Source: a virus
DNA length: 64,000 nucleotides
Virus record (IMG/VR): IMGVR_UViG_3300038412_000061
Span: 31,950-95,949 of that record
Strand: one strand, 5' to 3'
Positions 43,207 through 59,978 of this stretch are shown piece by piece (position 1 is the stretch's first letter; each line of letters begins with the position of its first letter). A model generated the notes under the pieces. That model was given only the letters and a program-made list of their open reading frames with translations, did no database searches and was not told the DNA's origin. A program made the position numbers and the translations under genes.

Positions 43207-43335
43207 TTTTTGATGACGTTGAGCCAGAGGCTGACTATGGATATTCAGATTGGCAAGAGCAGTTGCTAGAAGAAGCGTGGCTTGAAGCAATAGACGATTT
43301 TTTGGATGATGAGATCCACCAAGGTGAGGACCCAG

Positions 43336-44742
43336 ATGAGCTCGACGGATAACTTGGAGGAATCAGTGACAAAGATTGTCGAGATCGTCAGATACATGGG
43401 CGGGAGCGCCCTCATAGTTGGTGGCGCAGTTCGTGATTTTGTGATGTACGGGGGGGCGGGCGTCTTCGATAACGCCTCCGACATCGACCTGGAGATTTTT
43501 GGTTTAGAGTGGGGGGAGATCAAGCATTTGTTAACCCATGCCGGTTTCGCTTATGACGAGGTCGGAGAACAGTTCTGTGTTCTAAAGATCAAGGGACTCC
43601 CAATCGACATTTCCATCCCGCGCCGCGAGAAGTCAACTGGCGTTGGTCACAAAAACTTCGACGTTATCGGTGACCCTCATATGTCATTTGAGGACGCCGC
43701 GCGAAGACGTGATTTCACAATGAACGCAATGGGCTATGACCCCTTGACGAATGTAATCGTTGACCCTTACGGCGGCAGGCGGGATATAGACACTCAATTC
43801 ATCCAGCACACCTCAGAGGCTTTCTTCGAAGACCCCTTGCGCGTTCTCCGTGCCGCCCGATTCGCGGCCAGATACGATTTTGTGGTAAGCGCCCCTACCG
43901 CACAAGCATGTGAAGACATGAACAATCTGGCTCCAGAGCTTCCTTTTGAGAGAATCTGGATGGAGATGGAGAAGGCGCTCCTTCAGTCCATCAAGCCAAG
44001 CAGGTTCTTTAGAGAGCTCAACCGCTGTGGATGGCTGTACGTCTTCCCAGGGGTAGAGGCCTTGATTGGCGTCGATCAGGACCCTGGATGGCACCCCGAA
44101 GGGGATGTGTTCGAACACACTATGCACGCCCTTGACTACTGGGCGAAGAACCTGAAAACTGGTGACAAGGAAGACGATCTGGTCGTGGCCTTGTCCGTCC
44201 TGTGCCACGACTTCGGCAAGGTCTCGACCACAGAGTTTGTGGACGGCAAAATTCGGGCGCGGGGGCACGAAGAGGCGGGTGCAGAACCCACTGAGAAACT
44301 CCTGCATAGTATGCGTCAGTACGAACTAGCCAAGAATGTCGTCCCGATTGTGGAGAACCACCTGTACCCCCTCCACGTAGAGAACTTTTCCGCGCGCGGG
44401 ATACGGAGACTTTCAACGAGAGTTGATAGGATTGACCTTCTTACCATCGTCTCAAGGGCAGACGTTGCCGGAAGACCCCCCATCGATCCTGCTGACTCTT
44501 TTGCAAAGATTGACGAATTCGAGGCCATGGTTAAGAAAACTGACGTTCCGGTAGGTGGCCCTAAAAGACTGGCGACTGGAGATATGCTGATTGAGATGGG
44601 CCTATTCCCCGGACCAGAGTTCAAACACATTCTAGACAATGCCTATGAGGCCCAGCTCGACGGTATCGTATTTGACGCCGACAGCGCACTAGAGTACCTA
44701 CACGCCATGTTAGATGGCCCAATGAATGGATACGGAAACTGA
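43336..44742 (+). CDS. cca: CCA-adding tRNA nucleotidyltransferase with HD domain
   Basis: VGGAVRD...DIDLE, RRDFTMNAM, EDPLRVLRAARF, ERIWME, HPEGDVFEHT, LCHDFGK. Confidence 0.93.
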   Translation: MSSTDNLEESVTKIVEIVRYMGGSALIVGGAVRDFVMYGGAGVFDNASDIDLEIFGLEWGEIKHLLTHAGFAYDEVGEQFCVLKIKGLPIDISIPRREKSTGVGHKNFDVIGDPHMSFEDAARRRDFTMNAMGYDPLTNVIVDPYGGRRDIDTQFIQHTSEAFFEDPLRVLRAARFAARYDFVVSAPTAQACEDMNNLAPELPFERIWMEMEKALLQSIKPSRFFRELNRCGWLYVFPGVEALIGVDQDPGWHPEGDVFEHTMHALDYWAKNLKTGDKEDDLVVALSVLCHDFGKVSTTEFVDGKIRARGHEEAGAEPTEKLLHSMRQYELAKNVVPIVENHLYPLHVENFSARGIRRLSTRVDRIDLLTIVSRADVAGRPPIDPADSFAKIDEFEAMVKKTDVPVGGPKRLATGDMLIEMGLFPGPEFKHILDNAYEAQLDGIVFDADSALEYLHAMLDGPMNGYGN

Positions 44743-46916: not shown

Positions 46917-47406
46917 ACTAGGTGGAATCCCCATCGAAGGCTATATCATGCCCACGCATGGGGTAGTTGACCAGGACCCCATTGAGTATTTCGTTGACGC
47001 TCTTAGGGGTGTTTTCACAACCGGTGTTATCAAGGCCGTAAAGTGGGCACAGTACACGCCGTACTTCAACGATGGGGAGCCGTGCGTCTTCACGATTCAC
47101 GAGCCGTACTTCCGCTTCGCGGACCTGGACGACTACGATGATGGTGGAGACTACGAAGACGGTTACCTCTCTTCGTACGAGGAGAAATACCAGAGAATCC
47201 TTGGAGGCGATAAGTGGAATCGTGAAACTAGATCGTATGACCGCATTGAGGGGGAGGACCCGGTTACGGGCGCTCTTGTTAAGTCATTTGAGGACGTACT
47301 GAACAGTGGACGACACACTGTCGAGCTTGGGCGTATCTTCGGTGACCACGCTAAGGTGATTGCTACTCCAGACAAGTTCCTAGTCGAATCGTATGACCAC
47401 GACTAA
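46909..47406 (+). CDS. conserved phage protein (WxQYTPYFNDGEPC family)
   Basis: WAQYTPYFNDGEPCVF; C-terminal FGDH...YDHD. Confidence 0.65.
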   Translation: MSELGGIPIEGYIMPTHGVVDQDPIEYFVDALRGVFTTGVIKAVKWAQYTPYFNDGEPCVFTIHEPYFRFADLDDYDDGGDYEDGYLSSYEEKYQRILGGDKWNRETRSYDRIEGEDPVTGALVKSFEDVLNSGRHTVELGRIFGDHAKVIATPDKFLVESYDHD

Positions 47407-47699
47407 TGGCCTTCGACGCAAAGAACAATTACGTCTTTTTGACGCTAGACGACAAAGAGGACAAGGTCATGGAGTCGGGGTTGGTTATCCCACGGGGAGG
47501 CCCGTTGCCATCTGAGGGGACAGTCGTAGCAGCTGGACCGGGGAAGGTTGACGACAGAGGGCGGCTAATCCCTAACCCGGTGAACGTTGGTGATGTGGTG
47601 AACTTCGACAAGCTCCATGCTCATGGTGTGAAAATCGAGGGAACGGAATACGTGTACATCGACGCTGACCACATTCGCGCTATCTTGAAAGAGGAGTAG
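47406..47699 (+). CDS. groES: GroES-like co-chaperonin
   Basis: SGLVIP...GTVVAAGPG...VNVGDVV...VKIEGTEY. Confidence 0.85.
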   Translation: MAFDAKNNYVFLTLDDKEDKVMESGLVIPRGGPLPSEGTVVAAGPGKVDDRGRLIPNPVNVGDVVNFDKLHAHGVKIEGTEYVYIDADHIRAILKEE

Positions 47700-47844
47700 T
47701 GACAAGACCAGAATTGCAAATCAGGTTTCACTTGAATCCTCACGAACATCGCGAGGACGGCACCACCCACACGAAGACAACGCGACTGTCGCGGAAGATA
47801 AAGCGCCGCAAGAAGAACAAGGAAGCTAGGAGAGCCCGCAAACG

Positions 47845-48153
47845 ATGATCTATCTACTTTGGGTTCTGCTCATAGTCATCTTTCTGATTTTGTGGGGGAT
47901 TGCTGATTCGCTCACGTACCAGACTTTGATGAGAAAAAGCATGGTTTCCCCAGGGGCACCGAGCCCTGCAATAACGGAGTTGTACGGATTCCACGTGAAG
48001 TACAGCCCACTCGTAGAGCCTGGTGTCGCCCTGTTCATTAAGGGAGACTCCATATGGAATGCTGACTACGTGGTCTTTCACGGAGACGAGAGCAGTGATT
48101 CAGAGGCGTGGTGTGAGTCGTGGCAGAGAATCCTGGAAAGGGAAGAGGACTAA
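47845..48153 (+). CDS. membrane-anchored hypothetical protein
   Basis: N-terminal TM. Confidence 0.55.
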   Translation: MIYLLWVLLIVIFLILWGIADSLTYQTLMRKSMVSPGAPSPAITELYGFHVKYSPLVEPGVALFIKGDSIWNADYVVFHGDESSDSEAWCESWQRILEREED

Positions 48154-48863
48154 TGGGGTCTTTGGTTTATCACAAAATCAACTCTATCCAAAAGAGGGTG
48201 GCGGAAGGACCGGGAAAGGGCCAGTTCACCGGCGAATGGGCTGACCCTAACTTCGAAGAGCTTCAAGACCTTCATTGGATTTGCAGGGAGAAAATCGACG
48301 GGACCAATATCCGTGTGCACTTGTCACAAGAAGACAGAGGCGAGGGAGTGTCAATCCAGCGCATCAAACTTGATGGACGCACAGACAAGTCAGCCATCCC
48401 GAAGCCATTACTTACACGTTTGAACTATCTTTTTAACGACGAGGTCGCCACTAAGGCTTTTACAGAAATCTTTGACCACGGCGCGCTAGAAACGGGTGTA
48501 ACGATCTACGGCGAGGGATACGGTTCAGGAATCCAAAAGGGTGAAGACTATGGCCCAGTGGACTTCATCGTCTTCGACATCCGAATTGGACACATGTGGC
48601 TCGTAGAGGAGGCAGTCACAAGCATATCCCTTGCTCTTGGACTTAAACGAGTACCGATCTACGAGAACATCAAAACTTTGCGTGACGCCATCTCAATCGT
48701 CTCGAATGGGACTCTTATATCTCATTGGCCAGCCTACGGCGAGGCTGAGGGGATAGTGGCCGTACCTGCATCCGGAATTCTGGACCGCCGTGGAAATCGC
48801 ATCGTTGCAAAGGTCAAGGGAGTGGACTTCCCTAATCGACATTTCCGGGAAGGCGGATCATAG
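48153..48863 (+). CDS. RNA ligase (Rnl2-like adenylyltransferase)
   Basis: EKIDGTN (motif I), YGEGYG, FDI, EGIV, KVK. Confidence 0.82.
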   Translation: MGSLVYHKINSIQKRVAEGPGKGQFTGEWADPNFEELQDLHWICREKIDGTNIRVHLSQEDRGEGVSIQRIKLDGRTDKSAIPKPLLTRLNYLFNDEVATKAFTEIFDHGALETGVTIYGEGYGSGIQKGEDYGPVDFIVFDIRIGHMWLVEEAVTSISLALGLKRVPIYENIKTLRDAISIVSNGTLISHWPAYGEAEGIVAVPASGILDRRGNRIVAKVKGVDFPNRHFREGGS

Positions 48864-49081
48864 TGATAGACGAGACACTAGACCTTGAGAGTCAAAGCTT
48901 CAACTTGTTGCTCTCTGGGGAACAAATCAAGATCATTATGGAGGCCCTGCACTTTTCTCACGGGTTCTTAGGGGGATTGGATGCCGACGTTCAAGAGTCT
49001 GTCGTGGCAGTGAACAACGCAATCGTTGACCAGGTGACGGAGCAGATCGAAGAAACGGATGTCGTGAATGATGTTAGTTGA
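48863..49081 (+). CDS. acidic hypothetical protein
   Basis: Coupled ORF. Confidence 0.5.
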   Translation: MIDETLDLESQSFNLLLSGEQIKIIMEALHFSHGFLGGLDADVQESVVAVNNAIVDQVTEQIEETDVVNDVS

Positions 49082-49322
49082 CTTTGACCAATTGGTGCCG
49101 GAGGTTGACTCTACCCTGATGGACATTGCCTACACAAACGTCATCGCCATGGTGGAGAGCCACATCCTAACGTGGCGTCAGATGCACAGCCCAAGGGAAC
49201 TACTGGACATGGCGGACGAGACACAACGTGACGACGAGTTCTTCTTCCGTGGCGGGGCAGTAGCGCTGGAAAGCCTTAAGCTTGAGTTGGAAGGCGAGAG
49301 GGCCACACAATTCCTTTCATAG
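49068..49322 (+). CDS. hypothetical protein
   Basis: Coupled ORF. Confidence 0.5.
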   Translation: MMLVDFDQLVPEVDSTLMDIAYTNVIAMVESHILTWRQMHSPRELLDMADETQRDDEFFFRGGAVALESLKLELEGERATQFLS

Positions 49323-49326
49323 TGCC

Positions 49327-49355
49327 TTGACATGTTGGGGCGACTATGCTACAAT
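49327..49355 (+). promoter_or_regulatory. SigA-type promoter
   Basis: TTGACA-17-TACAAT with TG extension. Confidence 0.8.
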
Positions 49356-49379
49356 GGTGAAAAGACAAAAGGAGGACCA

Positions 49380-49607
49380 ATGTTCAAGACGTTGGCTAAG
49401 ACGTTGACGAAAGTGACGATGTATGCTGGCGGTGGTGCAGTTGGGATTTTGCTGATTCTTCTCTTGGCACTTTCATGGCTTGCGCTTGGTGCAGCGTGGT
49501 GGGGCTTTTGGATCATGATCATCATGGGCGCTACCGGACACGCATGGATGGGATTCACCACAGCGTGGTTGTGGGGGTTTGTCCCGGCGATTCTGACTGG
49601 TTCGTAG
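49380..49607 (+). CDS. membrane protein
   Basis: AGGAGG RBS; hydrophobic. Confidence 0.6.
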   Translation: MFKTLAKTLTKVTMYAGGGAVGILLILLLALSWLALGAAWWGFWIMIIMGATGHAWMGFTTAWLWGFVPAILTGS

Positions 49608-49617
49608 GAGGGCGGCG

Positions 49618-49842
49618 ATGGGAAAGAAGACAGACGAGTTGCAGCGGCAGGTAGACGAGTTGCGCGGAGAGATGGTTGGTCTGCGCAAGCGCGTTCGTGA
49701 CTTGGAGGGAAAGCCTCCTCCCTTCACCATCGACCCTTGGGTGAAGCCAGCTCCATATAGGCAATACCCTGACCAGACGTTTCCGGCGCCATATATTCCA
49801 CCTACAATTTGGTGCAACGTCGGTAGCAGTAGGTCTGTATGA
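49618..49842 (+). CDS. hypothetical protein (coiled coil + Pro-rich)
   Basis: AGGAGG RBS. Confidence 0.55.
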   Translation: MGKKTDELQRQVDELRGEMVGLRKRVRDLEGKPPPFTIDPWVKPAPYRQYPDQTFPAPYIPPTIWCNVGSSRSV

Positions 49843-50024
49843 CGCGTGACCAAGAACTTCGGTTCAATCTAGTGGTTTTGATGGTCTTGGGCTTCGTATC
49901 TGCTATTTTTGCGCTTGTTTTCTCACTGGATTACGTACAGTTCGTCTCTACGTGGTTCATTGCTGGGTTGACATACTGCTTGGGATGCTTGCTGTTCCCT
50001 TTAAGTAGGGATGGAGAAATGTGA
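49839..50024 (+). CDS. small membrane protein
   Basis: 2 TM. Confidence 0.5.
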   Translation: MTRDQELRFNLVVLMVLGFVSAIFALVFSLDYVQFVSTWFIAGLTYCLGCLLFPLSRDGEM

Positions 50025-50082
50025 TGGCATGGGGCAACTTTGACTGGCCGTGGAGACGCCTTTGGCGTCAGTGGCGTAAGGG

Positions 50083-50286
50083 ATGGTCGTACCTATGAGC
50101 GTCGGCTTTTTGGACGGTGAGGACGCTCTTTACGAAGAGGGTGACAGGGTCATGACCTGTAGCGCGGGGCGCATTGGAACTGTAAGAAGGAGCCACACAG
50201 AGCTAGGTAGACGCTTATACACGATTGAGGACGAGTCAGGAACGTTGTTCGTGGCCGAGGAGGAGGACCTAATATCAATATGGTGA
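50083..50286 (+). CDS. small SH3-like protein
   Basis: YEEGDRV...GTV...YTI...EEDL. Confidence 0.5.
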   Translation: MVVPMSVGFLDGEDALYEEGDRVMTCSAGRIGTVRRSHTELGRRLYTIEDESGTLFVAEEEDLISIW

Positions 50287-50738
50287 ATCAACGAACACGC
50301 CTAGTGACAGAGGGCGAACTGGAGTTGCAGGTTGGTGATACATTTTGCGCGCGTTTAGGCAACGGCTATGGAGCAGAACACACAGTCAGCGCCGTAGAGA
50401 TCGTCCCTGGTGTTGGGATCAAGGTTTTCTCCGGGCCATGGACAAATTCGTGGTATTGGTACCACGAATTGGCCAAAGTCGTCACAATCGAAGAAGTGGT
50501 CACGAAAAAGATTCTTGTCAATCTCGATCCCCCTGTGCTGCAACGTTTACCTGAGGTCGGTAGGTTTTTGCCCGGCGACGAAGTTTACTGGGACACAGCC
50601 CGAACACCAATCAGCCCCAAGGCCCACAGACGCTACGAGGTCGTTCGAGATGTGCAAGGCGACGATGTGTATTTCGAGGGTAGTGGGTGGCAGCCTGCAC
50701 ACAAACTGCATCACTTGTGGGAAGAGGAAGTGCAGTGA
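50280..50738 (+). CDS. hypothetical protein
   Basis: GGAGGAGG RBS. Confidence 0.55.
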   Translation: MVNQRTRLVTEGELELQVGDTFCARLGNGYGAEHTVSAVEIVPGVGIKVFSGPWTNSWYWYHELAKVVTIEEVVTKKILVNLDPPVLQRLPEVGRFLPGDEVYWDTARTPISPKAHRRYEVVRDVQGDDVYFEGSGWQPAHKLHHLWEEEVQ

Positions 50739-51094
50739 AGGTTTTTGAAAAGCCTGTAGAGGTTGGTGTACGAAGATTCTGTAACACGCAGGAGGAGCTA
50801 GACTTTTGGACTGAACGTTTCCGTTTTCTTTCCGGGGACGGGGGGGAACTACCTGAATACGAAAGGATGCGCGACGAAATGGTCAAGGCAATTCTTATGT
50901 GTAATGACCTTTTGGCCAACTTCAGAGCGCCGCTAGTCGAGTACCCTGAGGGCGACAAGAAACTTGCTCTAGCGATGTACGAGGCAAAGAGGTTTGTTGA
51001 CTCCGAGGATCTAGCAAGATTCATTTTTGATGCAATTTTGTCTGGAGAGTTGCAATTCAGAGTCTCTGAAACTGCGCTAGCGCTTCATGATTGA
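50735..51094 (+). CDS. hypothetical protein
   Basis: GTGA coupled. Confidence 0.55.
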   Translation: MKVFEKPVEVGVRRFCNTQEELDFWTERFRFLSGDGGELPEYERMRDEMVKAILMCNDLLANFRAPLVEYPEGDKKLALAMYEAKRFVDSEDLARFIFDAILSGELQFRVSETALALHD

Positions 51095-51140
51095 ATCATA
51101 GCCCTAAATCGCCGCATGTCATAGTGTGCGCGTATACAAG

Positions 51141-51173
51141 AAGTCCCCGCCGAAAGGCGGGGCTTCGTCGTTT
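51141..51173. terminator. GC-rich, potentially bidirectional terminator hairpin
   Basis: CCCCGCC-GAAA-GGCGGGG with T-rich flanks on both strands. Confidence 0.7.
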
Positions 51174-51286
51174 GAGGTCGAATCATGTGCCAGATCGAAT
51201 CACGTGTGCGGGTGCAGTGGCGGACGGTAAACGAAGGAGAAACCCGCCCGCCACTCCCCCAGGGAGTGCAACCCCTTTGTTGTAAC
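51141..51286 (-). ncRNA. candidate ~145-nt sRNA with anti-Shine-Dalgarno loop
   Basis: Bounded by minus-strand promoter (51293-51321) and terminator; 12-bp stem displaying UCUCCUU; no convincing ORF. Confidence 0.5.
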
Positions 51287-51292
51287 TACAAC

Positions 51293-51321
51293 ATTGTAAC
51301 ATAGGGCAGCTAAAAAGTCAA
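51293..51321 (-). promoter_or_regulatory. SigA-type promoter driving candidate sRNA
   Basis: TTGACT-17-TACAAT with TG extension on minus strand. Confidence 0.7.
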
Positions 51322-51334
51322 GAGGATCTTGATC

Positions 51335-51389
51335 GAATCACCGGAAATTTTGCACATCGCGAGCGCGCGATTGGAATCTGTGCTACAAT
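51335..51389 (+). promoter_or_regulatory. element 1 (drives tRNA operon)
   Basis: GAATC..ATCGCGAGCGCGCGAT..TGC-TACAAT. Confidence 0.8.
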
Positions 51390-51430
51390 ATAGGCGTCCC
51401 AAAGAATTGCTTAAGAAGTTTGGAGGGATA

Positions 51431-51528
51431 GCCGTGTGCGTATGACAAGTGGCCCAGATACCCACTTAGGCAAGTACACATCGTCTTATGTACGATGAGG
51501 CTCGGTTCGAATCCGGGGCACGGCACCA
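51431..51528 (+). tRNA. tRNA-Ile(UAU)-like with extra hairpin in D-loop
   Basis: Acceptor GCCGTGT/GCACGGC+A-CCA; T arm CTCGG-TTCGAAT-CCGGG; anticodon stem CATCGT/ACGATG, loop CT-TAT-GT; D stem GTAT/GTAC. Confidence 0.75.
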
Positions 51529-51728
51529 TGGCGAAGAAAACACCTAAGAGCATGAAGGGGAAGTTGCCACGGACGTTCACGTGTGGGTACTGTCGAGAGG
51601 GTGACCCTCCAGTCGTAACACGCATGGTTGTGAACGACCCTGCGAATCGCTACCATTTCGAGACTCAACACGCTTGGGCAAAGGACAACTGGACCCCAGT
51701 GTCAGAGAGAGGGAGCAGGGGAACGTGA
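51528..51728 (+). CDS. small basic Zn-ribbon-like protein
   Basis: MAKKTPK...CGYC...; ATG overlaps tRNA CCA. Confidence 0.5.
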   Translation: MAKKTPKSMKGKLPRTFTCGYCREGDPPVVTRMVVNDPANRYHFETQHAWAKDNWTPVSERGSRGT

Positions 51729-52012
51729 TGAACGTGATCTACAAGTACGCGGTTGGGGCCGGAGGTGCCTCATACGAATTTCCGGTTGGCTACAAGATAC
51801 TCTCTGTTGGTGCGCAGGCGGAGGAAATATGCGTGTGGGTTGAGCACTCGGTCGAGGCGCAAACTACCCACCGCTCTGAGGTTGAGTTCACGATCATTCC
51901 AACTGGTGGGACCGGCCACGAGGAAGGGAGCATTGGAAATTACGTGGGAACCGTTTTGTTGTTTCGAGGTTCATTGGTGTTTCACATATTTGCAAAGGAG
52001 GTTGTGCAGTGA
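51728..52012 (+). CDS. conserved phage protein (IYKY...YVGTV...VFH family)
   Basis: IYKYAV, ILSVGAQ, PTG, YVGTV, LVFHIF. Confidence 0.65.
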   Translation: MNVIYKYAVGAGGASYEFPVGYKILSVGAQAEEICVWVEHSVEAQTTHRSEVEFTIIPTGGTGHEEGSIGNYVGTVLLFRGSLVFHIFAKEVVQ

Positions 52013-52179
52013 CAAGGGCAGAGAGAGCAAGGGCACAGGAGGAGGCGCGTAGCATGGCGGTTCGCTACGCCTTTGACGACGAGGAGAGTGGGACGGTCCA
52101 GTACGAGGGGAGCATGGCCCACAGGCGCAGTCACTCTCAGTGGGCCAATGTCGGTTCGATTGGGGCGAGCCGTTTGTAG
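52009..52179 (+). CDS. small hypothetical protein (56 aa)
   Basis: AGGAGG RBS, GTGA overlap, stop abuts element 2. Confidence 0.45.
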   Translation: MTRAERARAQEEARSMAVRYAFDDEESGTVQYEGSMAHRRSHSQWANVGSIGASRL

Positions 52180-52181
52180 TC

Positions 52182-52236
52182 GAATCCCCGAAAGGGGAGC
52201 TAATCGCGCGTGCGTGATGCACTTCAGTGCTATACT
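52182..52236 (+). promoter_or_regulatory. element 2
   Basis: CCCC-GAAA-GGGG hairpin; ATCGCGCGTGCGTGAT; TGC-TATACT. Confidence 0.85.
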
Positions 52237-52260
52237 TGAAAACGAAAGCGAGGGAAACAA

Positions 52261-52470
52261 ATGACTGAACACGATGTGAATGTCATGGAGGCACAGATTG
52301 CGCAACTTGAGTCCAACTACAAGGACGCCTGCGAGCGCTTGAATGCCATCTATGGATTGTTGCCATCGGGGACAACCGAGGAGGAAATCCGTGAAGAAAT
52401 CTACCAGGCAAACTACGACCCCATCGACGCCATTACGAAGATCGTTCAAATTCTAGAGGAGGGTGTATGA
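52261..52470 (+). CDS. small acidic protein
   Basis: First gene after element 2. Confidence 0.6.
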   Translation: MTEHDVNVMEAQIAQLESNYKDACERLNAIYGLLPSGTTEEEIREEIYQANYDPIDAITKIVQILEEGV

Positions 52471-52811
52471 GCGAAAGGCGCGTTAGGAGCAATGAGCCGT
52501 TCACCAAGGACCGTTTCTTGGGTATCAGCACTCAATCGGTACGGTCGGTCTACCGGTTTGCTGAGGAGCGTGAGGATGGTTCATATGCCGGTGGTGGATA
52601 TGCTCCCGGCGACATGATTGGTCATCAGATCATCAACACGGTGCGCGGTTTGTGTGATAAGGTGGACTACCTAGAAAGGGTCATTGTGGACATCGCTTTC
52701 GCTCTTCCGTCATCGAGGTCGGAGGTATGGGAGGGTGACGACATGTACGATTCGTTGGTGGCAATCCGAGAGATTTTGATTGAGGACGTTGGGTTTAAGG
52801 ACAACAGATGA
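52467..52811 (+). CDS. hypothetical protein
   Basis: Coupled ORF. Confidence 0.6.
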   Translation: MSERRVRSNEPFTKDRFLGISTQSVRSVYRFAEEREDGSYAGGGYAPGDMIGHQIINTVRGLCDKVDYLERVIVDIAFALPSSRSEVWEGDDMYDSLVAIREILIEDVGFKDNR

Positions 52812-53230
52812 GCGAATTCTTGAAGATTGACAGTGACGCATTGGACCGGCACATTACCGGAAATTACGGGGAGGACCAGTTGGGGACCGAGGAGCAAAAG
52901 GAGAACCTGTGGCATTGGCTTGAGAACGGTGCCGAGGACGCGTACCCAGTTGACCGCATCCTCCACGATTCTCTTTCCGAGTTCTACACGTGGGGTTTGA
53001 ACTACGACATGTCCACCAGCCCGTTCAATCTGTTCCGCGACCTGGTTGGTTGGAGCGAAGAGAACATCGGTGGGAGGTTGTACGACTACTCTGAGGGTAC
53101 ACTGGGCTACTTGGAGGCTGGACTTCTTTCAAAGGCGCTAGACTTTTGGAGTGACGACCCACGGCGCGTGGAAAAGTGGCTCGACCGTGTCAGTGAGTTG
53201 GAGTTGGCCGACTACGATGTCAATGGATAG
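52808..53230 (+). CDS. acidic hypothetical protein
   Basis: DALDRHITGNYGEDQ; LGYLEA. Confidence 0.6.
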   Translation: MSEFLKIDSDALDRHITGNYGEDQLGTEEQKENLWHWLENGAEDAYPVDRILHDSLSEFYTWGLNYDMSTSPFNLFRDLVGWSEENIGGRLYDYSEGTLGYLEAGLLSKALDFWSDDPRRVEKWLDRVSELELADYDVNG

Positions 53231-53657
53231 GTTCTATGATCAAGATGGAGGAAAGATAATGGGTATGGAAGACCACCCGTCGTTAAGCAACATGTCGCCC
53301 GACGAGCGACGGGAGTACATGCAATTCGCCAAGTTGGCGGGTCGAGACGTTCCACTACCGGAGGTAGGTAAGAAATCAATGGCAACGGAGGAATTGGTCT
53401 ACATTGACCGTGACGGTTTGTATGGTGATGCAACCGGCTTATTGGTCATCAAGACATCCGACCTGGGGGAGGGTGGCCGACAGGCCTTTGAAAAGGCCAA
53501 GGACCAGGCAGAGGACCTGTTGACGTGGGTGGTCGGATACCTTGGCGCGTCCGGCGTCCCCATCGGTGCGACTTTCGTGGCGCATACCTCCAAGTTGTAC
53601 CCGGCGACCGTCACCAAAAACTCCAGGGGCATCCTCAAGAGACTGCGGGGCATGTAG
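53223..53657 (+). CDS. hypothetical protein
   Basis: Coupled ORF; start uncertain. Confidence 0.5.
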   Translation: MDRFYDQDGGKIMGMEDHPSLSNMSPDERREYMQFAKLAGRDVPLPEVGKKSMATEELVYIDRDGLYGDATGLLVIKTSDLGEGGRQAFEKAKDQAEDLLTWVVGYLGASGVPIGATFVAHTSKLYPATVTKNSRGILKRLRGM

Positions 53658-53659
53658 AG

Positions 53660-53833
53660 ATGAGCGAGGTAGTGGGCTACACATGCAATGGTGAAATCTT
53701 TTGCCTTGCGTGTGTGGCCCTTAACCCTTGGGCGGAGCCGTTCAAACACTGTAGTCCACCCATCTTCAAGGATGAAGCGGACTACGTTGACTGTACCATT
53801 TGTGGCGCGCCCTTGATCGAATCAGCGGACTGA
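53660..53833 (+). CDS. small Zn-binding protein
   Basis: FCLAC...CTICG. Confidence 0.55.
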   Translation: MSEVVGYTCNGEIFCLACVALNPWAEPFKHCSPPIFKDEADYVDCTICGAPLIESAD

Positions 53834-53873
53834 GCTCAGATCGCGCACGCGCGATCCGCCACCGTGGTACACT
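53819..53873 (+). promoter_or_regulatory. element 3
   Basis: ATCGCGCACGCGCGAT; TGG-TACACT. Confidence 0.85.
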
Positions 53874-53898
53874 GTTTGCACAAGCGAGAGGATGCAAA

Positions 53899-54150
53899 GT
53901 GAGTAGGTTCAAGATCGGTGACGAAGTCGTCATCCACATGGATGGCAGGGACAGCGACCCTTATTGGGTGGGAAGACATGGAACCGTGTGCGACGTTCTT
54001 CCCGTTAAGGATGGGCACATTGTACCTAGCGTGTCATTCTATGTTAGTGACGCGGACACGTGGGACGTTCAGGTAAATGTGGAAGACCTGTTCGACGGCG
54101 AACTGGGGTCCGCACCATGGTTTGACGAGACTGAATTGGAGTTGGCATGA
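53899..54150 (+). CDS. SH3-like small protein
   Basis: FKIGDEV...GTV...ETELE. Confidence 0.55.
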   Translation: MSRFKIGDEVVIHMDGRDSDPYWVGRHGTVCDVLPVKDGHIVPSVSFYVSDADTWDVQVNVEDLFDGELGSAPWFDETELELA

Positions 54151-54749
54151 GTTACGTTCACGACACTTTCGTGCATGGCGACTGGAGGGTCAAAATCTTG
54201 CAGGACGAAGACTGCCCGAGTCCGCGAGAGTGGATTAACGTTGGCATAATGGTCACTTGGTGGCATGGCTACTCTTCACCAGATGGACAGGCAAACTCCT
54301 GGCACGACATTGAAGAGTTCGAGTCATGGTACAACTGGCAGGACAAAGACGAACGTTGGGTATGTTTGCCCCTGAAGCCACGGTATTACGATGGCGGGTA
54401 TCTCATTGCGTCCGACCAGGACATTTTGGAGAACCGTTATGTCGGGTGGATTTTCACTACAACGGAAACCGTGGAGTACACGGGCGCGCCGGTAGAGAGC
54501 CTTGAGGCGCAACTTCTTGCAGAGGTTGAAGAGTACAATACGTGGGCCAGCGGTTACTGCTACGGGTACGTTATAGAGCGTCTTGTCCCATCTTGTTCTT
54601 GCGGAGAGTGCAAAAACTGGGAGGAAGTCGAAGATGGTTCATGTTGGGGTTTCATTGGCAAGATTTTGGACTTCTACTACCCGGACGGTTTCCCCGAGGA
54701 GTTGAAGTGCGAATTGCGCAAGAGTGGCTACCTTGGGGAGGGAGTATGA
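54147..54749 (+). CDS. acidic, aromatic-rich conserved MGE protein
   Basis: DEDCPSPREW...EVEEYNTWASGYCYGYVIE...SCWGF. Confidence 0.65.
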   Translation: MSYVHDTFVHGDWRVKILQDEDCPSPREWINVGIMVTWWHGYSSPDGQANSWHDIEEFESWYNWQDKDERWVCLPLKPRYYDGGYLIASDQDILENRYVGWIFTTTETVEYTGAPVESLEAQLLAEVEEYNTWASGYCYGYVIERLVPSCSCGECKNWEEVEDGSCWGFIGKILDFYYPDGFPEELKCELRKSGYLGEGV

Positions 54750-54970
54750 GCGCGGGAATAGCGAAGGTCAGGAACTACCATCCGGGGGAGTTCATCTACG
54801 GGCGGAAAATTCTGAATGAAGAGACCGTTGATGTGTTTCTTACAGATGTCGAGGTGGAGAGCGCCGAGAGGGGCCTGGTGGATGACAACGGGAACGTCGT
54901 GTTGGAGATCGAAGTGGACGGTTGCATCGAACTTGTCATTGTACAATCGATAGATTTGGAGTGGCGATGA
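54746..54970 (+). CDS. small acidic protein
   Basis: ATGA coupled. Confidence 0.5.
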   Translation: MSAGIAKVRNYHPGEFIYGRKILNEETVDVFLTDVEVESAERGLVDDNGNVVLEIEVDGCIELVIVQSIDLEWR

Positions 54971-54990
54971 AGGAATCAATGTGATTGAAT

Positions 54991-55045
54991 GAATCCGAGC
55001 AACCGGAGCTAATCGCGCGTGCGCGATCCAGATCTGTGGTACACT
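54991..55045 (+). promoter_or_regulatory. element 4
   Basis: ATCGCGCGTGCGCGAT; TGG-TACACT. Confidence 0.85.
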
Positions 55046-55072
55046 GTGACCACGAACAAGGAAAGGCAACAC

Positions 55073-55378
55073 ATGAAGGTGCGAATCACGGAGGGTCAGT
55101 CGGTGACTGGAATCTCCTCTCACAACTACCCGCGCGGTACGGTTGTCGAGGTGAACGACGACCTTGTCATTTTGGACGGCCCGAGGCCAGGGTACATTCT
55201 GGACGCTGATTGGTGCGAAGAGGTCGAGGGCGACACCTCATCCTACGCCGTCAACGTTAGAATTACGTATGAGGAGGTCCGAGGCCTTGAAAGGGTGATT
55301 GCTTTCGCTGAGGACGAGGGCCTGAATGTTGACCTTGAGTGGGGAGTTTTGGGAAAGATCAGAAAGGCCATGCAATGA
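55073..55378 (+). CDS. hypothetical protein
   Basis: RBS; first gene after element 4. Confidence 0.55.
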   Translation: MKVRITEGQSVTGISSHNYPRGTVVEVNDDLVILDGPRPGYILDADWCEEVEGDTSSYAVNVRITYEEVRGLERVIAFAEDEGLNVDLEWGVLGKIRKAMQ

Positions 55379-55671
55379 GGCACCTAGACGCAATGATGTT
55401 GCAGATCAAGAGTCTTGACAACGATGCTTCCGTCCGATACAGTCAGTACACCCACATGTGGTACGTGTCGGCAAACATCGAGATTGGTGGCGATGGGCTT
55501 CTGTCAGGAATCGCTTCACATGCCGAATCCCCCCAGTTGGCTGTAGAGGAGTATTTCAAAGTCATCACCACAGTGCCCATTGGCTATTACCTGGTAACGG
55601 AGCGTGGGGAGGGGCGTCGTGAGTGGTTGTGGAATGGTGCCGCATTTTTTGAGACTGGACGGACGAAATGA
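55375..55671 (+). CDS. hypothetical protein
   Basis: ATGA coupled. Confidence 0.55.
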   Translation: MRHLDAMMLQIKSLDNDASVRYSQYTHMWYVSANIEIGGDGLLSGIASHAESPQLAVEEYFKVITTVPIGYYLVTERGEGRREWLWNGAAFFETGRTK

Positions 55672-56066
55672 CAGATATTGACCTGGACAAGATAGTTAAC
55701 GGGTACCTTCAATGTGCCCTGTTTACGGGGGTGACTGAAGACGACGAGCCCATGGACTACGTCTACAACATTGGCGATTTTTCCGAAGAGGCGGTCGAGC
55801 AGGCAACCGTGGAATGTGCTCTTTTCGTGCAGTCGAATTTGGACGACGTTAGAGAGTTGCTGGATTCCCATGGTGGGGTCGATAACGAGGACATCGGTAT
55901 GGACTTGTGGTACACCCGGAATGGACATGGATGTGGCTTTTGGGACCGGGGGTATGGCGAGTTGGGCGACCGTCTGACCGAGTACTGCCACACTATCCCA
56001 GAGCGTAGTGTGGTGGCAGGGGATGGAAACGAATTCGAGTTGGGCGACACGTTGGTGATCGAATGA
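55668..56066 (+). CDS. acidic conserved phage protein
   Basis: YLQCALF...G.DLWYTRNGHGCGFWDRG. Confidence 0.65.
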   Translation: MTDIDLDKIVNGYLQCALFTGVTEDDEPMDYVYNIGDFSEEAVEQATVECALFVQSNLDDVRELLDSHGGVDNEDIGMDLWYTRNGHGCGFWDRGYGELGDRLTEYCHTIPERSVVAGDGNEFELGDTLVIE

Positions 56067-56290
56067 ATGAGAGCGTGCGTACCGTAACTGACAAAGAAAT
56101 CTGGGAATTGAGCGCTAGTGCTGTTAACGCCATGGACAATTTCTTTGACAATGAGGCTGATGTTGGCGGAGACATGAATGAATGGACTCACGCTGACGCA
56201 GTTGCGTTGTGGGATGACATAATCATGTATTTGGAATCTCGTCGGAATCGTAGCAAAGAGATTGTGGAGAGTAGCGAAAATGGTAGTTAA
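56063..56290 (+). CDS. small acidic protein
   Basis: Coupled ORF. Confidence 0.5.
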   Translation: MNESVRTVTDKEIWELSASAVNAMDNFFDNEADVGGDMNEWTHADAVALWDDIIMYLESRRNRSKEIVESSENGS

Positions 56291-56447
56291 GTCCAAGCAC
56301 ACAGGCGAGTCGTGGGTGGTCATTGCCAACCGTGAGAGATGGGAGCGAAGAAGGGAAGAGGCTAAGGCAAGACGCCTTGAACTGTTGAAGGTCCGTGCCG
56401 ATTACTACGCCAGAATCTCGCACGACTACGACAACGATCTTATTTGA
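56280..56447 (+). CDS. small hypothetical protein
   Basis: Stop TGA lies in the TGAATC of element 5. Confidence 0.45.
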   Translation: MVVKSKHTGESWVVIANRERWERRREEAKARRLELLKVRADYYARISHDYDNDLI

Positions 56448-56501
56448 ATCCCCGGAAAAGGGGTGGAATCGCGCGTACGCGATAAGCTAATCTGGTACAC
56501 T
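56446..56501 (+). promoter_or_regulatory. element 5
   Basis: CCCC..GGGG hairpin; ATCGCGCGTACGCGAT; TGG-TACACT. Confidence 0.85.
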
Positions 56502-56527
56502 GGTGCAAACGACTTGAGAGGAATACT

Positions 56528-56923
56528 GTGGAACTTGAATTGAAGGAACGGTGGGTAGGCGCACTTCGAAGCGGTGAGTATCGTCAGGGGAAGGGAGTGC
56601 TACGCACCGATAGTGACAAGTACTGTTGCTTGGGAGTTTTGTGCAACCTGGTGGACCCCAACGCCTGGGAGCCGGGTACCGTGTCCCAATGGGTGGGCTC
56701 AGAGGAGGGCGATGACGGCGCAATGGTCGAGGCTCGCGTCTACCCACAGCCTTTGAATTCGAGGGAGAAGATCGACGAGAAGGCGATTCCCTACACCTTC
56801 CTCTCTACCAAGTTCTTGCAAGATGTAGGCCTGGATGAAGGGATTGCTCACATGCTTGCCGAACGCAACGACCTTGGATGGTCTTTCGGTGAACTGGCTG
56901 AACTGATCGAAGAGAGGGTCTGA
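56528..56923 (+). CDS. conserved phage protein (WV.ALRSG.Y.QG...CCLGV family)
   Basis: WVGALRSGEYRQGKG, YCCLGVLC, NDLGWSF. Confidence 0.7.
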   Translation: MELELKERWVGALRSGEYRQGKGVLRTDSDKYCCLGVLCNLVDPNAWEPGTVSQWVGSEEGDDGAMVEARVYPQPLNSREKIDEKAIPYTFLSTKFLQDVGLDEGIAHMLAERNDLGWSFGELAELIEERV

Positions 56924-56926
56924 TTT

Positions 56927-56981
56927 GAATCCCCGGAAGGGGGTATGATCGCGCGTGCGCGATCTGCGCATTCGGTAGACT
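56927..56981 (+). promoter_or_regulatory. element 6
   Basis: CCCC-GGAA-GGGG; consensus palindrome; TAGACT. Confidence 0.85.
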
Positions 56982-57006
56982 GGAGACAAGCAAAACAGGA
57001 GGAATT

Positions 57007-57270
57007 ATGAGTTTTTTCACAGCGAAGTACATCCGAGAGTGCTTGGATGGAGTGCCGGACGATGAGCCTGTATTCGGCATTATCTTCACCCGCGCCGAGA
57101 ACGAAGTGGACGCGGTGGACGAGGACGGGAACTACGGTAGCCGTGTAACGACTCCTGCGGAGTGGGAGAAGATCGTGGAAAGGGCCGAGTCATATGCGGA
57201 GCCCTACGGTTTTAATAGTCTGTGGGAGTGTCTGAACGACGCCAAGAGCGAAGTGGTGACTTGTGACTAA
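57007..57270 (+). CDS. small acidic protein
   Basis: AGGAGG RBS. Confidence 0.6.
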   Translation: MSFFTAKYIRECLDGVPDDEPVFGIIFTRAENEVDAVDEDGNYGSRVTTPAEWEKIVERAESYAEPYGFNSLWECLNDAKSEVVTCD

Positions 57271-57502
57271 ATTCACCTACACCGTTACCGTGGAGGTCGA
57301 GGACGACTTGGGTATGCCAATCGAGTGCTACAACGAGGATTTGTTCGATTGGACGGACGACGACTACGACGAGGACGGCAACATAACAGCGCGGTGGTTG
57401 TCCCCCGATACCATGGCAAGCATCGTTATGGCGAATCGCTTGGGTTGCGACGAGGACTACGGGTTTGACTACACCGTGGATTGGAGTAGGGCTGATGGCT
57501 GA
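57263..57502 (+). CDS. very acidic small protein
   Basis: DWTDDDYDEDG; coupled. Confidence 0.55.
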   Translation: MTKFTYTVTVEVEDDLGMPIECYNEDLFDWTDDDYDEDGNITARWLSPDTMASIVMANRLGCDEDYGFDYTVDWSRADG

Positions 57503-57758
57503 ATTGGACGAGGTATTGGCCCTGGCTATTGAGGACTACGACCCGGAGGCTTTCTACGACGGGGAAGAGCAGATTGTCAAGGAGAGCGTCACAGAGTTGT
57601 ATGGGTGTATTGCGTTCCCAACCGACTACTCTCCCGAGCAAATCCTGTCGGAATACCACGACACATTCCTGGGGTGGTACGACAGTTTTGAGGCGATGGC
57701 TGACGACAACATTTTTGACACGTGGGAGTCTGAGGGGTACTACTTTAGGAGCGTCTGA
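57495..57758 (+). CDS. ArdA-like acidic protein (short paralog)
   Basis: FLGWYDSFEAMA...WESEGYYFR, similar to 61361-61732. Confidence 0.5.
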   Translation: MAELDEVLALAIEDYDPEAFYDGEEQIVKESVTELYGCIAFPTDYSPEQILSEYHDTFLGWYDSFEAMADDNIFDTWESEGYYFRSV

Positions 57759-57768
57759 TCGAGCGAAC

Positions 57769-57823
57769 GAATCCCCCCGAGTGGGAACAATCGCGTGCAC
57801 GCGATCTGCATCTTTGATACACT
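57769..57823 (+). promoter_or_regulatory. element 7
   Basis: Perfect palindrome ATCGCGTGCACGCGAT; TGA-TACACT. Confidence 0.85.
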
Positions 57824-57841
57824 GGAGGAACAGGGGGGCAA

Positions 57842-58030
57842 ATGGACTACACGGTTCAGAGGTATGAAATCACATTGGAAGTGAGGGACGACGGGTTCGT
57901 CAATCTCAGCATTTCGTTCACGAGGAACGACGGAGAGCCGGATTGGCACAGCCACAATCGTGTGACACTTGACTACGCCATCAAGCGTATAGAGATGCAC
58001 GCGCACGCTGGTCACGCGAGGGAGGAGTAA
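57842..58030 (+). CDS. small hypothetical protein
   Basis: First gene after element 7. Confidence 0.55.
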   Translation: MDYTVQRYEITLEVRDDGFVNLSISFTRNDGEPDWHSHNRVTLDYAIKRIEMHAHAGHAREE

Positions 58031-58173
58031 TGCACATTTTTCACAAGTGGGGGAAGTGGGAGGCCTTCGACGTGTTGTCAGTTGACACGTCCACCGGTAA
58101 GGGGTATGAGGTTACGCGACAAAAGCGTATGTGTCGTAAGTGTGGACTACTGAGGGTCAAGAAACTGGGGTAG
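58030..58173 (+). CDS. small Zn-ribbon protein
   Basis: HKWGKW...QKRMCRKCG; TAATG overlap. Confidence 0.5.
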   Translation: MHIFHKWGKWEAFDVLSVDTSTGKGYEVTRQKRMCRKCGLLRVKKLG

Positions 58174-58235
58174 GGGAAACCAAAGTACGAATCATGGTCA
58201 TGGAGTGCACCAATTTGAGGGGTGGTCATGGGGTT

Positions 58236-58289
58236 AAATCCCCGGACCGGAGCTGATCGTGCGCGCGCGATACCCGCACCTGGTACACT
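58236..58289 (+). promoter_or_regulatory. element 8
   Basis: AAATC; ATCGTGCGCGCGCGAT; TGG-TACACT. Confidence 0.8.
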
Positions 58290-58312
58290 GGAATCACAAG
58301 CGAGGAGAGAAT

Positions 58313-58543
58313 ATGGAAAGCCCAACAGTATCATTCGCAGTGGAGAGCGAGTTCGACGCCAGGGTTGTGGAGAACTTCTACAACACTTTGCGCCGTGTCC
58401 GCGAGTTGAAGACCATGTCGGTCCGCAAGCCGGGGATGTCAACCGAGGAGCAGGAGACAGCCGACCTGGCCCTTGACGACTACAACAATGCACGCTGGTC
58501 AATGTTCCGCTGGATTGAGCGACGTTGCGAGGACGGTGTCTGA
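58313..58543 (+). CDS. hypothetical protein
   Basis: GAGGAG RBS. Confidence 0.55.
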   Translation: MESPTVSFAVESEFDARVVENFYNTLRRVRELKTMSVRKPGMSTEEQETADLALDDYNNARWSMFRWIERRCEDGV

Positions 58544-58770
58544 TGGACCAAGACATCATTACCCTGTTGGAGAGGGTGAGGGAGAAACGGCACGCGTGGA
58601 GGTTCGGTGACACCTTCGGGGACGACGAGCGTTACGAAGAGTACGCCAAAGCGAAGAAAGAGTACATGAGGTTCTGTGAATATGCCGTGTACGACGAGCG
58701 CGGAGAGGACGAGCAACCGCGAGACACCTTCGGTCTGGGAAAGTTGGAGGAGGCCCACGCAGAATGGTGA
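58543..58770 (+). CDS. hypothetical protein
   Basis: TGATG coupled. Confidence 0.55.
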   Translation: MDQDIITLLERVREKRHAWRFGDTFGDDERYEEYAKAKKEYMRFCEYAVYDERGEDEQPRDTFGLGKLEEAHAEW

Positions 58771-59060
58771 GCAATTTTTTTGGGAGGGGGAGGAAGGTAT
58801 ACGACGACGCACCGCCCGAGTACTCCTCAGTGCAAACAGACTCGCTGGAAGATGCAGAGGCACTTAAACTTATATACAGGTACGTAAAGATGAGCCGTGT
58901 CATACACACCCTGGGAGAGAGGGATGGCATGGTGTACGACGACTTGGAAGCGGACCTGGTTGGGAAAACATGTGGATTGGTGGGTGACATGATCGACCCC
59001 GAGTGGGGTAGCAAGTTCAGGGAAATCCTTTATCGGGATGGGGTGGTTTGGTATGTGTGA
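58764..59060 (+). CDS. hypothetical protein
   Basis: Coupled ORF. Confidence 0.5.
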   Translation: MVSNFFGRGRKVYDDAPPEYSSVQTDSLEDAEALKLIYRYVKMSRVIHTLGERDGMVYDDLEADLVGKTCGLVGDMIDPEWGSKFREILYRDGVVWYV

Positions 59061-59241
59061 ATTGGACAAAGAGACTGAGTCATGGGAATACGGGGAAAGA
59101 GGGTTACAGCGTAGAGGGACACAGGAAATCCTAGATCGAACGGAGAAGCCATTGGTGGACAATCACGGTAGATACGTGTGGACCGTAACTTACTGCCAGT
59201 ATGGTGGAAAGAGGTTCAAAGCCACATGGAGGGAATATTAG
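59053..59241 (+). CDS. small hypothetical protein
   Basis: Coupled ORF. Confidence 0.45.
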   Translation: MCELDKETESWEYGERGLQRRGTQEILDRTEKPLVDNHGRYVWTVTYCQYGGKRFKATWREY

Positions 59242-59620
59242 TCTTCATCGAATCATTCTGGCACCTATGAACGCTGAAGGTACATAGTGACTTTGGGATG
59301 ATGAGTTGTTTTGAACCTATACCCATACTGGTTGAATTCCCTGATGGGTGTGGTGGAATGGGTATGAATCACACGTCTTTCGGAAAAACACACGTGTATG
59401 CGTGATTTTGCACCACCGTTGCACGGAATTCCGAATTATTCCTGATCAAATCATGTAATTTGCACCAATCCTCATTGAATCATGCGCGAAAGTAGACAAA
59501 ATGGACGCGGGAAGGGGGTTATTCCGGGTATTTCACCCACCTATTTTGACCAGGCAAAACGTGAAAAAAAGGGAGGTTTCACACCGGGGCTGAGTAAATT
59601 GAAAGTAGACAAGCGTGATC

Positions 59621-59657
59621 GAATCACGGGTTCGCCGCCGAATCGCGCGCACGCGAT
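59621..59657 (+). promoter_or_regulatory. element 9 (truncated: no -10, no cargo)
   Basis: GAATC..ATCGCGCGCACGCGAT followed 7 nt later by element 10. Confidence 0.8.
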
Positions 59658-59664
59658 CCACATT

Positions 59665-59719
59665 GAATCACGGGTGGGCAGGAGCATCGCGCGTGCGCGA
59701 TAGCCCTGAATCGTAAGAT
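59665..59719 (+). promoter_or_regulatory. element 10 (leaderless)
   Basis: Consensus palindrome; TAAGAT; ATG at 59726. Confidence 0.8.
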
Positions 59720-59725
59720 TTGGGC

Positions 59726-59961: not shown

Positions 59962-59978
59962 GGTGGAAAAGGAGGGAC

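Follow-up and report, generated by a model that had tools for sequence, protein, structure and literature searches.

Transfer RNAs of the tRNA-Ile(UAU) type are known from Mycoplasma mobile, Bifidobacterium, and many large phages, where they carry A at position 37 and no hairpin in the D-loop. Units in which a tRNA abuts a coding sequence include thrU-tyrU-glyT-thrT-tufB of Escherichia coli and the mitochondrial transcripts described by the tRNA punctuation model, and the known tRNA introns of bacteria belong to group I and measure at least 200 nt. In archaea, according to two reports (PMC3241643 and PMC4090602), tRNA introns at non-canonical positions form a bulge-helix-bulge, are cut by EndA, and are sealed by RtcB. 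Leaderless mRNAs are a frequent feature of Actinobacteria; for Propionibacterium acnes, the start codon falls on a transcription start in 50 cases and follows one within 10 nt in 88 more (PMC3848588). Here we describe a 98-nt tRNA-like gene (the element) in a 64,000-nt stretch of viral DNA (the window), which comprises bases 31950-95949 of IMG/VR virus record IMGVR_UViG_3300038412_000061 (G000; 95,949 bp, 53% G+C). On the evidence of its sequence, predicted fold, and relatives, we interpret the element as a five-armed phage gene of the tRNA-Ile(UAU) type, with its extra arm in the D-loop, that one lineage gained where a leaderless gene begins and that is a variant of an extra-arm design.

The initial annotation of this DNA, made from its letters alone, had described a 98-nt cloverleaf with an encoded CCA, a UAU anticodon, a hairpin in the D-loop, G8, and a 6-bp anticodon stem, and both the sequence and its fold agree. 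The components are as follows (window positions, as throughout unless stated otherwise).

51431-51528, plus strand: tRNA-like gene, 98 nt, recognized from sequence, fold, and an ARAGORN call after hairpin deletion
51431-51437 with 51518-51524, plus strand: acceptor stem, 7 bp (GCCGTGT/GCACGGC), one G-U pair
51438, plus strand: G8, followed by C9
51440-51443 with 51474-51477, plus strand: D-stem, 4 bp (GTAT/GTAC)
51447-51467, plus strand: fifth arm in the D-loop, 21 nt, consisting of a 6-bp stem (AAGTGG/CCACTT) and the 9-nt loop CCCAGATAC
51479-51484 with 51492-51497, plus strand: anticodon stem, 6 bp (CATCGT/ACGATG)
51485-51491, plus strand: anticodon loop CTTATGT (CUUAUGU in RNA), with TAT at 51487-51489 and G37 at 51490
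51501-51517, plus strand: T-arm CTCGG-TTCGAAT-CCGGG, canonical
51525 and 51526-51528, plus strand: discriminator A73 and the encoded CCA

The 30 nt that separate the D-stem strands read GAC-(AAGTGG-CCCAGATAC-CCACTT)-AGGCAA, and the variable region is 3 nt. Besides the UAU anticodon and A73, the gene has the canonical 7-bp acceptor stem, a 5-bp T-stem with a GTTCRANYC loop, a 7-nt anticodon loop, U33, and a purine at position 37. The hairpin falls in the stretch of the D-loop 5' of G18-G19 (positions 16-17) that varies in length among tRNAs. The minimum-free-energy fold of the 98-mer is the cloverleaf with the extra hairpin (-32.6 kcal/mol), with 28 of 28 proposed base pairs intact and pair probabilities of 0.83-0.99 in the extra hairpin. 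An alternative D-stem (GTAT/ATAC) together with a small ACTT/AAGT hairpin was rejected (-25.2 versus -30.5 kcal/mol; pair probability of 0).

As had been anticipated, standard finders report nothing for the native sequence: ARAGORN made no call, and the Rfam tRNA model RF00005 gave no match, whether at its gathering threshold or at E<=10. When 51447-51467 were deleted, ARAGORN called a 77-nt tRNA-Ile(tat) whose D-loop was normal-sized and contained GG; many other D-region deletions of 16-27 nt also yielded the call, so this test does not fix the borders of the insert. As the control, we deleted singly each hairpin with a stem of at least 5 bp across the 95.9-kb genome (n = 5,112), and a single deletion, that of the D-loop hairpin of the element, produced a new tRNA call. 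The same control gave one call in total for ten dinucleotide shuffles and none for the reversed genome, and the deletion of ~16,000 hairpins in five related phage records gave no new tRNA calls. Further, the T-arm sequence GGTTCGAATCC is found in five copies in the tRNA array of the phage and in one copy outside the array, which is the element. The tRNA origin of the element is secure, because the deletion controls and the rarity of GGTTCGAATCC are joined by a correctly spaced 7-bp acceptor stem and by the ACCA end. Standard tRNA finders miss genes of this five-armed kind. Elsewhere in the clade, a hairpin-interrupted tRNA was seen as one weak call, lacking a canonical T-loop, in G001, the closest complete relative of G000 (88,953 bp; terminase 85% identical).

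We note that the loop of the fifth arm, CCCAGATAC, ends in GATAC, which is identical to positions 34-38 of the loop of the phage's own tRNA-Ile(GAU), CTGATAC, and is in register with them, the 3' strand of the stem following at the same two-base offset in both. Among the 9,432 genome hairpins with a loop of at least 7 nt, GAT stands at this offset in 1.4%, GATA in 0.32%, and GATAC in 0.095%. No further copy of the hairpin sequence exists in G000 or G001, and the hairpin is not a repeated element. Because the loop repeats the GAUAC of tRNA-Ile(GAU), the hairpin points to a permanent fifth arm rather than to a removable insert.

A pattern scan of IMG/VR returned one clean independent five-arm example, in contig IMGVR_UViG_3300009537_000056 (L102), which gave no match by BLAST to the annotated phage collection. 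At ~2165-2262 of this contig, a 91-nt tRNA with 7/7 acceptor pairs bears a CCGT-TTTATGA-ACGG arm (UAU/G37) and, in the variable region, a CCCT-CTGATAA-GGGG arm; the pattern itself demanded G37, and the scan thus covered only tRNAs with that base. Both tRNAs are phage-borne, both have a UAU loop followed by G37 (TTTATGA in L102 and CTTATGT in the element), and both have a fifth hairpin whose loop displays GAU-A as tRNA-Ile(GAU) does. They differ in that the arm of the element lies in the D-loop and has the 9-nt loop CCCAGATAC, whereas that of L102 lies in the variable region and has the 7-nt loop CTGATAA, and in that the element occurs once, in one lineage, and away from the tRNA array. The two have no evident sequence similarity, the likeness being one of design rather than of direct alignment.

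G000 originates from a mine-drainage metagenome. Its large terminase shares only 32% identity with those of the nearest annotated phages, which infect Arthrobacter, and for this reason we regard G000 as a distant, probably actinobacterial, phage; its promoters, ribosome-binding sites, and nearest terminases are bacterial in type. An independent Logan assembly, probably of the source sample, spans 50000-51577 with zero differences from the window. Relatives, among them G001, were reached through a terminase search. Neither the element region nor a 20-kb stretch had a BLAST match among 50,697 phage records, and the DUF7352 protein and the RNA ligase, used as queries, recovered no relatives in IMG/VR. 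The DUF7352 protein had only two matches in the phage collection, to distant Vibrio and Pseudomonas phage records, and a search with the promoter-element pattern described below returned single, chance-level matches.

The element lies immediately upstream of a small open reading frame (ORF) of 66 amino acids (aa), in the following arrangement.

51335-51389, plus strand: early promoter element, with GAATC at 51335-51339, the palindrome ATCGCGAGCGCGCGAT at 51356-51371, a 12-nt spacer, and the extended -10 box TGcTACAAT at 51381-51389
51396-51430, plus strand: leader, 35 nt, which probably arose by duplication of the first ~33 nt of the 66-aa ORF and then decayed
51528-51728, plus strand: 66-aa ORF (MAKKTPKSMKGKLPRT...CGYC...), in which the A of the ATG is the last A of the CCA of the element

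Transcription would start near G51396. At the ACC-ATG junction (51525-51530), the CCA of the element is made up of the CC of the inserted unit and the A of the ATG, and the ORF has no Shine-Dalgarno sequence outside the tRNA structure. G001 retains synteny with 47406-51094 and carries an orthologue of the ORF (49% identity by tblastn; 46% in a second comparison); at this site, G001 has the same promoter element, TATACT, seven bases, and then ATGGCAAAGAAG. A related metagenome contig, L068, likewise has the promoter element, TACGAT, six bases, and then ATGGCAAAGAAG, and neither site contains a tRNA-like sequence. The L068 orthologue is 54% identical, with its first 14 residues the same as in G000, and our reading of the two genes puts nine differences in the first 15 codons, eight of them synonymous. 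Because the ATG stands 6-7 nt after the -10 box, the orthologous mRNAs of G001 and L068 have the geometry of leaderless mRNAs. When the three sites were aligned, only G000 had additional sequence, 132 bases long (51396-51527), separating 'ataggc' from the ATG. The element is thus a lineage-specific 132-nt insertion. A covariance model built from the 98-mer (R1) found only itself among 25 related records and nothing in the other 24, so that the insert, whose conservation in relatives had been raised as a check in the initial annotation, is absent from these as it is from the orthologous sites.

Compared in register, the leader matches the start of the L068 ORF at 19 of 35 positions (shuffle p = 0.0004) and the start of G000's own ORF at 17 of 35 (p = 0.006); by local alignment alone, the resemblance is not significant. 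The leader is probably a decayed copy of the ORF start, and the ~97-nt tRNA-like unit would then be flanked by a degenerate ~33-nt direct repeat, the pattern expected of an unequal crossover. The 5' half of the tRNA-like gene showed no resemblance to the ORF (p = 0.12-0.7). Two other readings of the flank were rejected: a GGAGGG-GTG mini-ORF as a designed leader peptide, where GGAGGG aligns to ORF codons 9-11 (ATG-AAG-GGC) and looks like a relic of these and not like a purpose-built ribosome-binding site, and a descent of the 5' acceptor strand from the 'cgtgtgc' spacer of G001, which L068 does not support. The flanking duplicate has diverged from its twin by about half, and the 28 pairs of the unit are all intact; this difference argues for constraint on the RNA. 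In the source-sample assembly, a second allele of the 66-aa ORF (window 51548-51696; about half the depth) has nine substitutions plus three indels (+2, -1, -1) whose frameshifts cancel out within 15 nt, which suggests a co-occurring strain that still keeps the ORF open. The 66-aa ORF, used as a query, matched nothing in the phage collection or in a set of 5.8 billion proteins.

No donor for the unit was found in the same genome, IMG/VR, the JGI metagenomes, or the GTDB genomes. In IMG/VR, exact searches with 21-26-mers from the hairpin and from the 3' end gave no match, and a pattern of anticodon loop plus T-arm matched only one unrelated contig there (IMGVR_UViG_3300029534_000127; L009) and nothing in the JGI metagenomes. 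A recent duplication of an array tRNA was rejected (the best identity, 52/77, is spread over several isotypes and is generic, and BLAST matches T-loop words only), as was a phage attachment site or copied host tRNA. The phage has no integrase (PF00589, PF00239), and no GTDB species-representative genome contains the 3' 22-mer of the element (a relaxed pattern gave six scattered matches), so the reading as an attP site lacks support. The L009 contig (40% G+C) carries two adjacent tRNA-likes, at 5771-5867 and 5960-6068, in both of which the anticodon or variable region is longer by ~20 bases and both of which ARAGORN misses; one has a CTTATGT loop, and the other resembles tRNA-Leu(CAA). Model R1 scored these at only 13-24 bits.

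The account that we favor, tentatively and as a little short of probable in its entirety, is that the element is a real, lineage-specific, extra-arm tRNA-Ile(UAU) gene, neither intron-bearing nor a decaying pseudogene, which entered as a ~97-nt unit, with a ~33-nt duplication, between the early promoter and the start codon. The early promoter would transcribe the leader, the tRNA-like RNA, and the ORF as one RNA, and RNase P would cut it at G51431, a site that we propose because the acceptor/T minihelix and ACCA, which are all that bacterial RNase P needs, are canonical. Processing of the tRNA 3' end at the CCA/AUG junction would free an ORF mRNA with a leader of 0-2 nt and so restore the leaderless start that preceded the insertion. 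The 98-nt RNA would retain the 21-nt hairpin as a fifth arm, which would show G-A-U-A-C as the anticodon loop of tRNA-Ile(GAU) does, and the decoding loop would carry UAU followed by G37. The arm would supply isoleucine-type identity, or another anticodon-loop recognition signal that is absent from the UAU/G37 loop, and the RNA would serve as a supplementary reader of AUA. That the element gives rise to an expressed, structured RNA we consider likely; that it is charged and decodes AUA is possible but on balance doubtful; and that the GAU arm acts as an identity signal is improbable.

In an actinobacterium, endonucleolytic cuts have been mapped inside encoded CCA ends, with the suggestion that the CCA-adding enzyme could repair them (PMC3848588). 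G000 encodes RtcB as well as the following two proteins, of which the second confirms the RNA ligase that the initial annotation had placed nearby.

43306-44742, plus strand: CCA-adding enzyme family protein with an HD domain (PF01743, PF12627, PF01966), which could rebuild a CCA end cut in 3' processing
48120-48863, plus strand: RNA ligase (PF09414, E = 1.6e-12; phrog_548), given as context with no demonstrated link to the element

As in the known tRNA-mRNA units, a tRNA-shaped RNA here abuts a coding sequence, and processing would set the end of the mRNA. Unlike in those units, the CCA end of the element overlaps the start codon by one base, and the ORF has leaderless orthologues, so that processing would recreate a leaderless mRNA. 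A second junction in which the A of an ATG falls at tRNA position 76, behind tRNA-Leu(CAA) in both G000 and G001, parallels that of the element. This tRNA is encoded on the minus strand at genome positions 14188-14263 in G000 and 7398-7469 in G001, the junctions read ACCATGG and ACTATGA, respectively, with no ribosome-binding site, and the ORFs behind them (52 and 63 aa) are unrelated to each other. The 66-aa ORF was rejected as a paralogue of the 52-aa ORF, since BLASTP found nothing, though both begin with MAK and share C-x-YC. A limited literature search turned up no description of D-loop hairpins in phage tRNAs or of leaderless mRNAs generated by tRNA processing.

The proposed role in decoding has to be set against the tRNA array of the phage, which lies outside the window on the minus strand (genome 13.2-18.2 kb) and contains 31 tRNAs by ARAGORN or 27 by Rfam, among them tRNA-Ile(GAU) and a compact tRNA(UAU); the array of G001 has the same order. 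The array tRNA(UAU) (genome 13242-13313 in G000 and 6325-6398 in G001, both minus strand) has A37 in both phages (loops CTTATAT and CTTATAA), and its acceptor, D, and 6-bp anticodon stems show compensatory changes between the two. Given these changes and the retention of A37, the array tRNA(UAU) is, as judged from the two genomes, the conserved AUA reader of the clade. It is compact, in that a single base links the acceptor stem to the D-stem, the D-loop is 5 nt long, and the anticodon stem has 6 bp; its T-loops are non-canonical (TCCGATT in G000 and ATCATTC in G001), and the G000 copy is not reported by the Rfam tRNA model. ATA is used 9.9 times per 1000 codons in the phage overall and 14.3 times per 1000 in the structural region, and the tape-measure gene has 21 ATA codons, bearing out the earlier remark that ATA is frequent there.

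Like the bacterial and phage tRNA-Ile(UAU) genes, the element has a UAU anticodon, U33, and discriminator A, and it would read AUA without lysidine; unlike these and the array copy, which have A37 and no D-loop hairpin, it has G37, G8, and G14. An ordinary supplementary AUA decoder, which IleRS would charge through UAU and A73 and in which the hairpin would be tolerated without function and the GAUAC match a coincidence, could account for the intact stems, the purine at position 37, the encoded CCA, the high use of ATA in late genes, and the placement of the insert in a length-variable stretch of the D-loop. Such a decoder would, however, be redundant beside the conserved array tRNA(UAU), G37/U38 and G8/G14 fit a tRNA-Ile poorly, the gene is missing from all relatives examined, and GATAC stands at the anticodon-equivalent offset in only 0.1% of genome hairpins. 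We consider this alternative unlikely, although it has one of the better chances among those weighed here. The TilS-independent AUA decoder proposed in the initial annotation thus stands in part: the tRNA-like gene with its UAU anticodon is real and such a role possible, but the array already provides a conserved tRNA(UAU) with A37, the element has G37/U38 and lacks U8 and A14, and the relatives examined do not have it.

Several observations weigh against the favored account of an extra-arm tRNA-Ile(UAU) gene. The array tRNA(UAU) has A37 and works without an extra arm, so such an arm is not obviously needed for charging in the host. The element lacks the U8-A14 tertiary pair, which is near-universal (G at 51438 and G14 at 51444), and the A37 expected in tRNAs that read ANN codons, which is the t6A site (the loop has G37/U38). 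The fifth arm is located at the elbow, far from the contact between IleRS and the anticodon, its loop is 9 nt rather than 7, and the GAUAC match is a single instance that was tested following a prior lead. Because the array tRNA(UAU) needs no arm, the arm sits at the elbow, and G8/G14 and G37/U38 are unfavorable, the step in which the element serves as a supplementary AUA reader is weak. The z-score of the fold against shuffles is only -1.1, occurrence in one lineage makes a covariation test impossible, and a perfect hairpin can arise in one mutational (template-switch) step. The argument for constraint is likewise not conclusive, as selection may have favored loss of the ATG from the duplicate, and intact stems may simply reflect a recent insertion. 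In RNA libraries from two other mine-drainage studies, contigs cover 50361-51121 and 52544-52772, leaving 51212-52524, including the element, uncovered; this gap is uninformative, small structured RNAs being usually lost from such libraries. An extended version of the favored account, in which one tRNA splits identity from decoding, is improbable: the D-loop arm would offer G34-A35-U36-A37-like bases to IleRS or an identity enzyme, the UAU/G37 loop would only read AUA, and 3' processing would also make the leaderless mRNA. Because the decoding loop is unlike that of any host isoleucine tRNA, such a tRNA would have no need of lysidine and might escape anticodon-directed nucleases.

With about the same small chance as the ordinary decoder, the element could be a neutral relic, in which illegitimate recombination brought in a foreign or damaged tRNA gene that is processed only incidentally, if at all, and does nothing in trans. 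Its restriction to a single lineage, the flanking duplication typical of an unequal crossover, the departures from consensus (G8, G14, G37, and the long D region), the lack of an Rfam score, and the failure of the donor search are what such a relic would show. A relic does not readily explain why 28/28 pairs are intact beside a duplicate that has diverged by about half, why the downstream ORF is intact and conserved though it has no ribosome-binding site of its own, or why the loop matches GAUAC. Random decay, another origin considered for the insert in the initial annotation, is unlikely because all of the proposed pairs are intact.

Less probable still is a decoy or shield, that is, a mimic of the isoleucine anticodon loops (UAU and GAU) that would absorb a host tRNA-cleaving nuclease or modification enzyme and have no role in translation. 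Two anticodon-like loops on one scaffold, the RtcB, RNA ligase, and CCA-adding enzyme of the phage, and the early promoter upstream would suit this function. We know of no tRNA-Ile-specific nuclease, no relative has kept the unit, and the sequence does not separate a decoy from a decoder. Evasion of anticodon nucleases by phage tRNAs through changes in the anticodon loop, as proposed in one report (PMC10264068), would also be in keeping with a decoy. The non-canonical intron suggested in the initial annotation, a 21-nt hairpin that would be excised and the halves joined by RtcB or the RNA ligase to give a 77-nt tRNA, is very improbable even though its removal leaves a normal-sized D-loop with GG and both ligases are encoded, as inspection of the borders revealed no bulge-helix-bulge (two 3-nt bulges separated by a 4-bp helix; none of three inner-helix placements pairs the required 4 nt), the phage genome lacks an EndA-type endonuclease (PF01974), no Rfam intron model matches, and 21 nt is far too short for group I. 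The likeness to archaeal tRNA introns is hence confined to a short extra sequence in the D-loop and an RtcB gene, in a phage whose promoters, ribosome-binding sites, and nearest terminases are bacterial.

If the fifth arm of the proposed tRNA-Ile(UAU) gene is functional, a tRNA could bear a second, non-decoding mimic of an anticodon, the placement of which varies on the scaffold (in the D-loop in the element and in the variable region elsewhere), and this would bear on AUA reading without lysidine, on recognition by synthetases, and on the contest between phages and tRNA-targeting defenses. That a tRNA-shaped unit was inserted precisely at the +1/AUG of a leaderless gene provides a testable case of tRNA processing making a leaderless mRNA in a bacterial virus. 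Even as a relic only, the element would be a clean example of a phage gaining a tRNA gene by unequal recombination.

Further features of the array were noted. Its first tRNA (anticodon CAU; genome 18123-18198 in G000 and 13821-13890 in G001, both minus strand) combines G8-C9 with a 6-bp anticodon stem, a variable region of 3 nt, and a mismatched acceptor stem, scores only 27 bits with Rfam, and is identical in its 5' half in the two phages. The G001 array contains two orphan GGTTCAAATCC T-loop motifs, at ~6160-6260 and ~8990-9110 (minus strand), which ARAGORN leaves uncalled; a CCGTGGG-G-CCA end comes after the first, but we found no 5' acceptor strand to match it. Finally, a regular-expression scan for the promoter class (ATCGCG-N4-CGCGAT, 12 nt, TAnnnT) found 24 copies in G000, located within window 51356-63790 and genome 38-1340. 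Most are followed by a short leader containing AAGGAG, and a few (window 59686, 62746, and 63790) have leaderless geometry, with the ATG 5-6 nt past the -10 box. The copy at window 63790 repeats that at genome position 38, including at least 90 nt downstream, with one mismatch, and for this reason the G000 record appears to have a terminal repeat or circular permutation.

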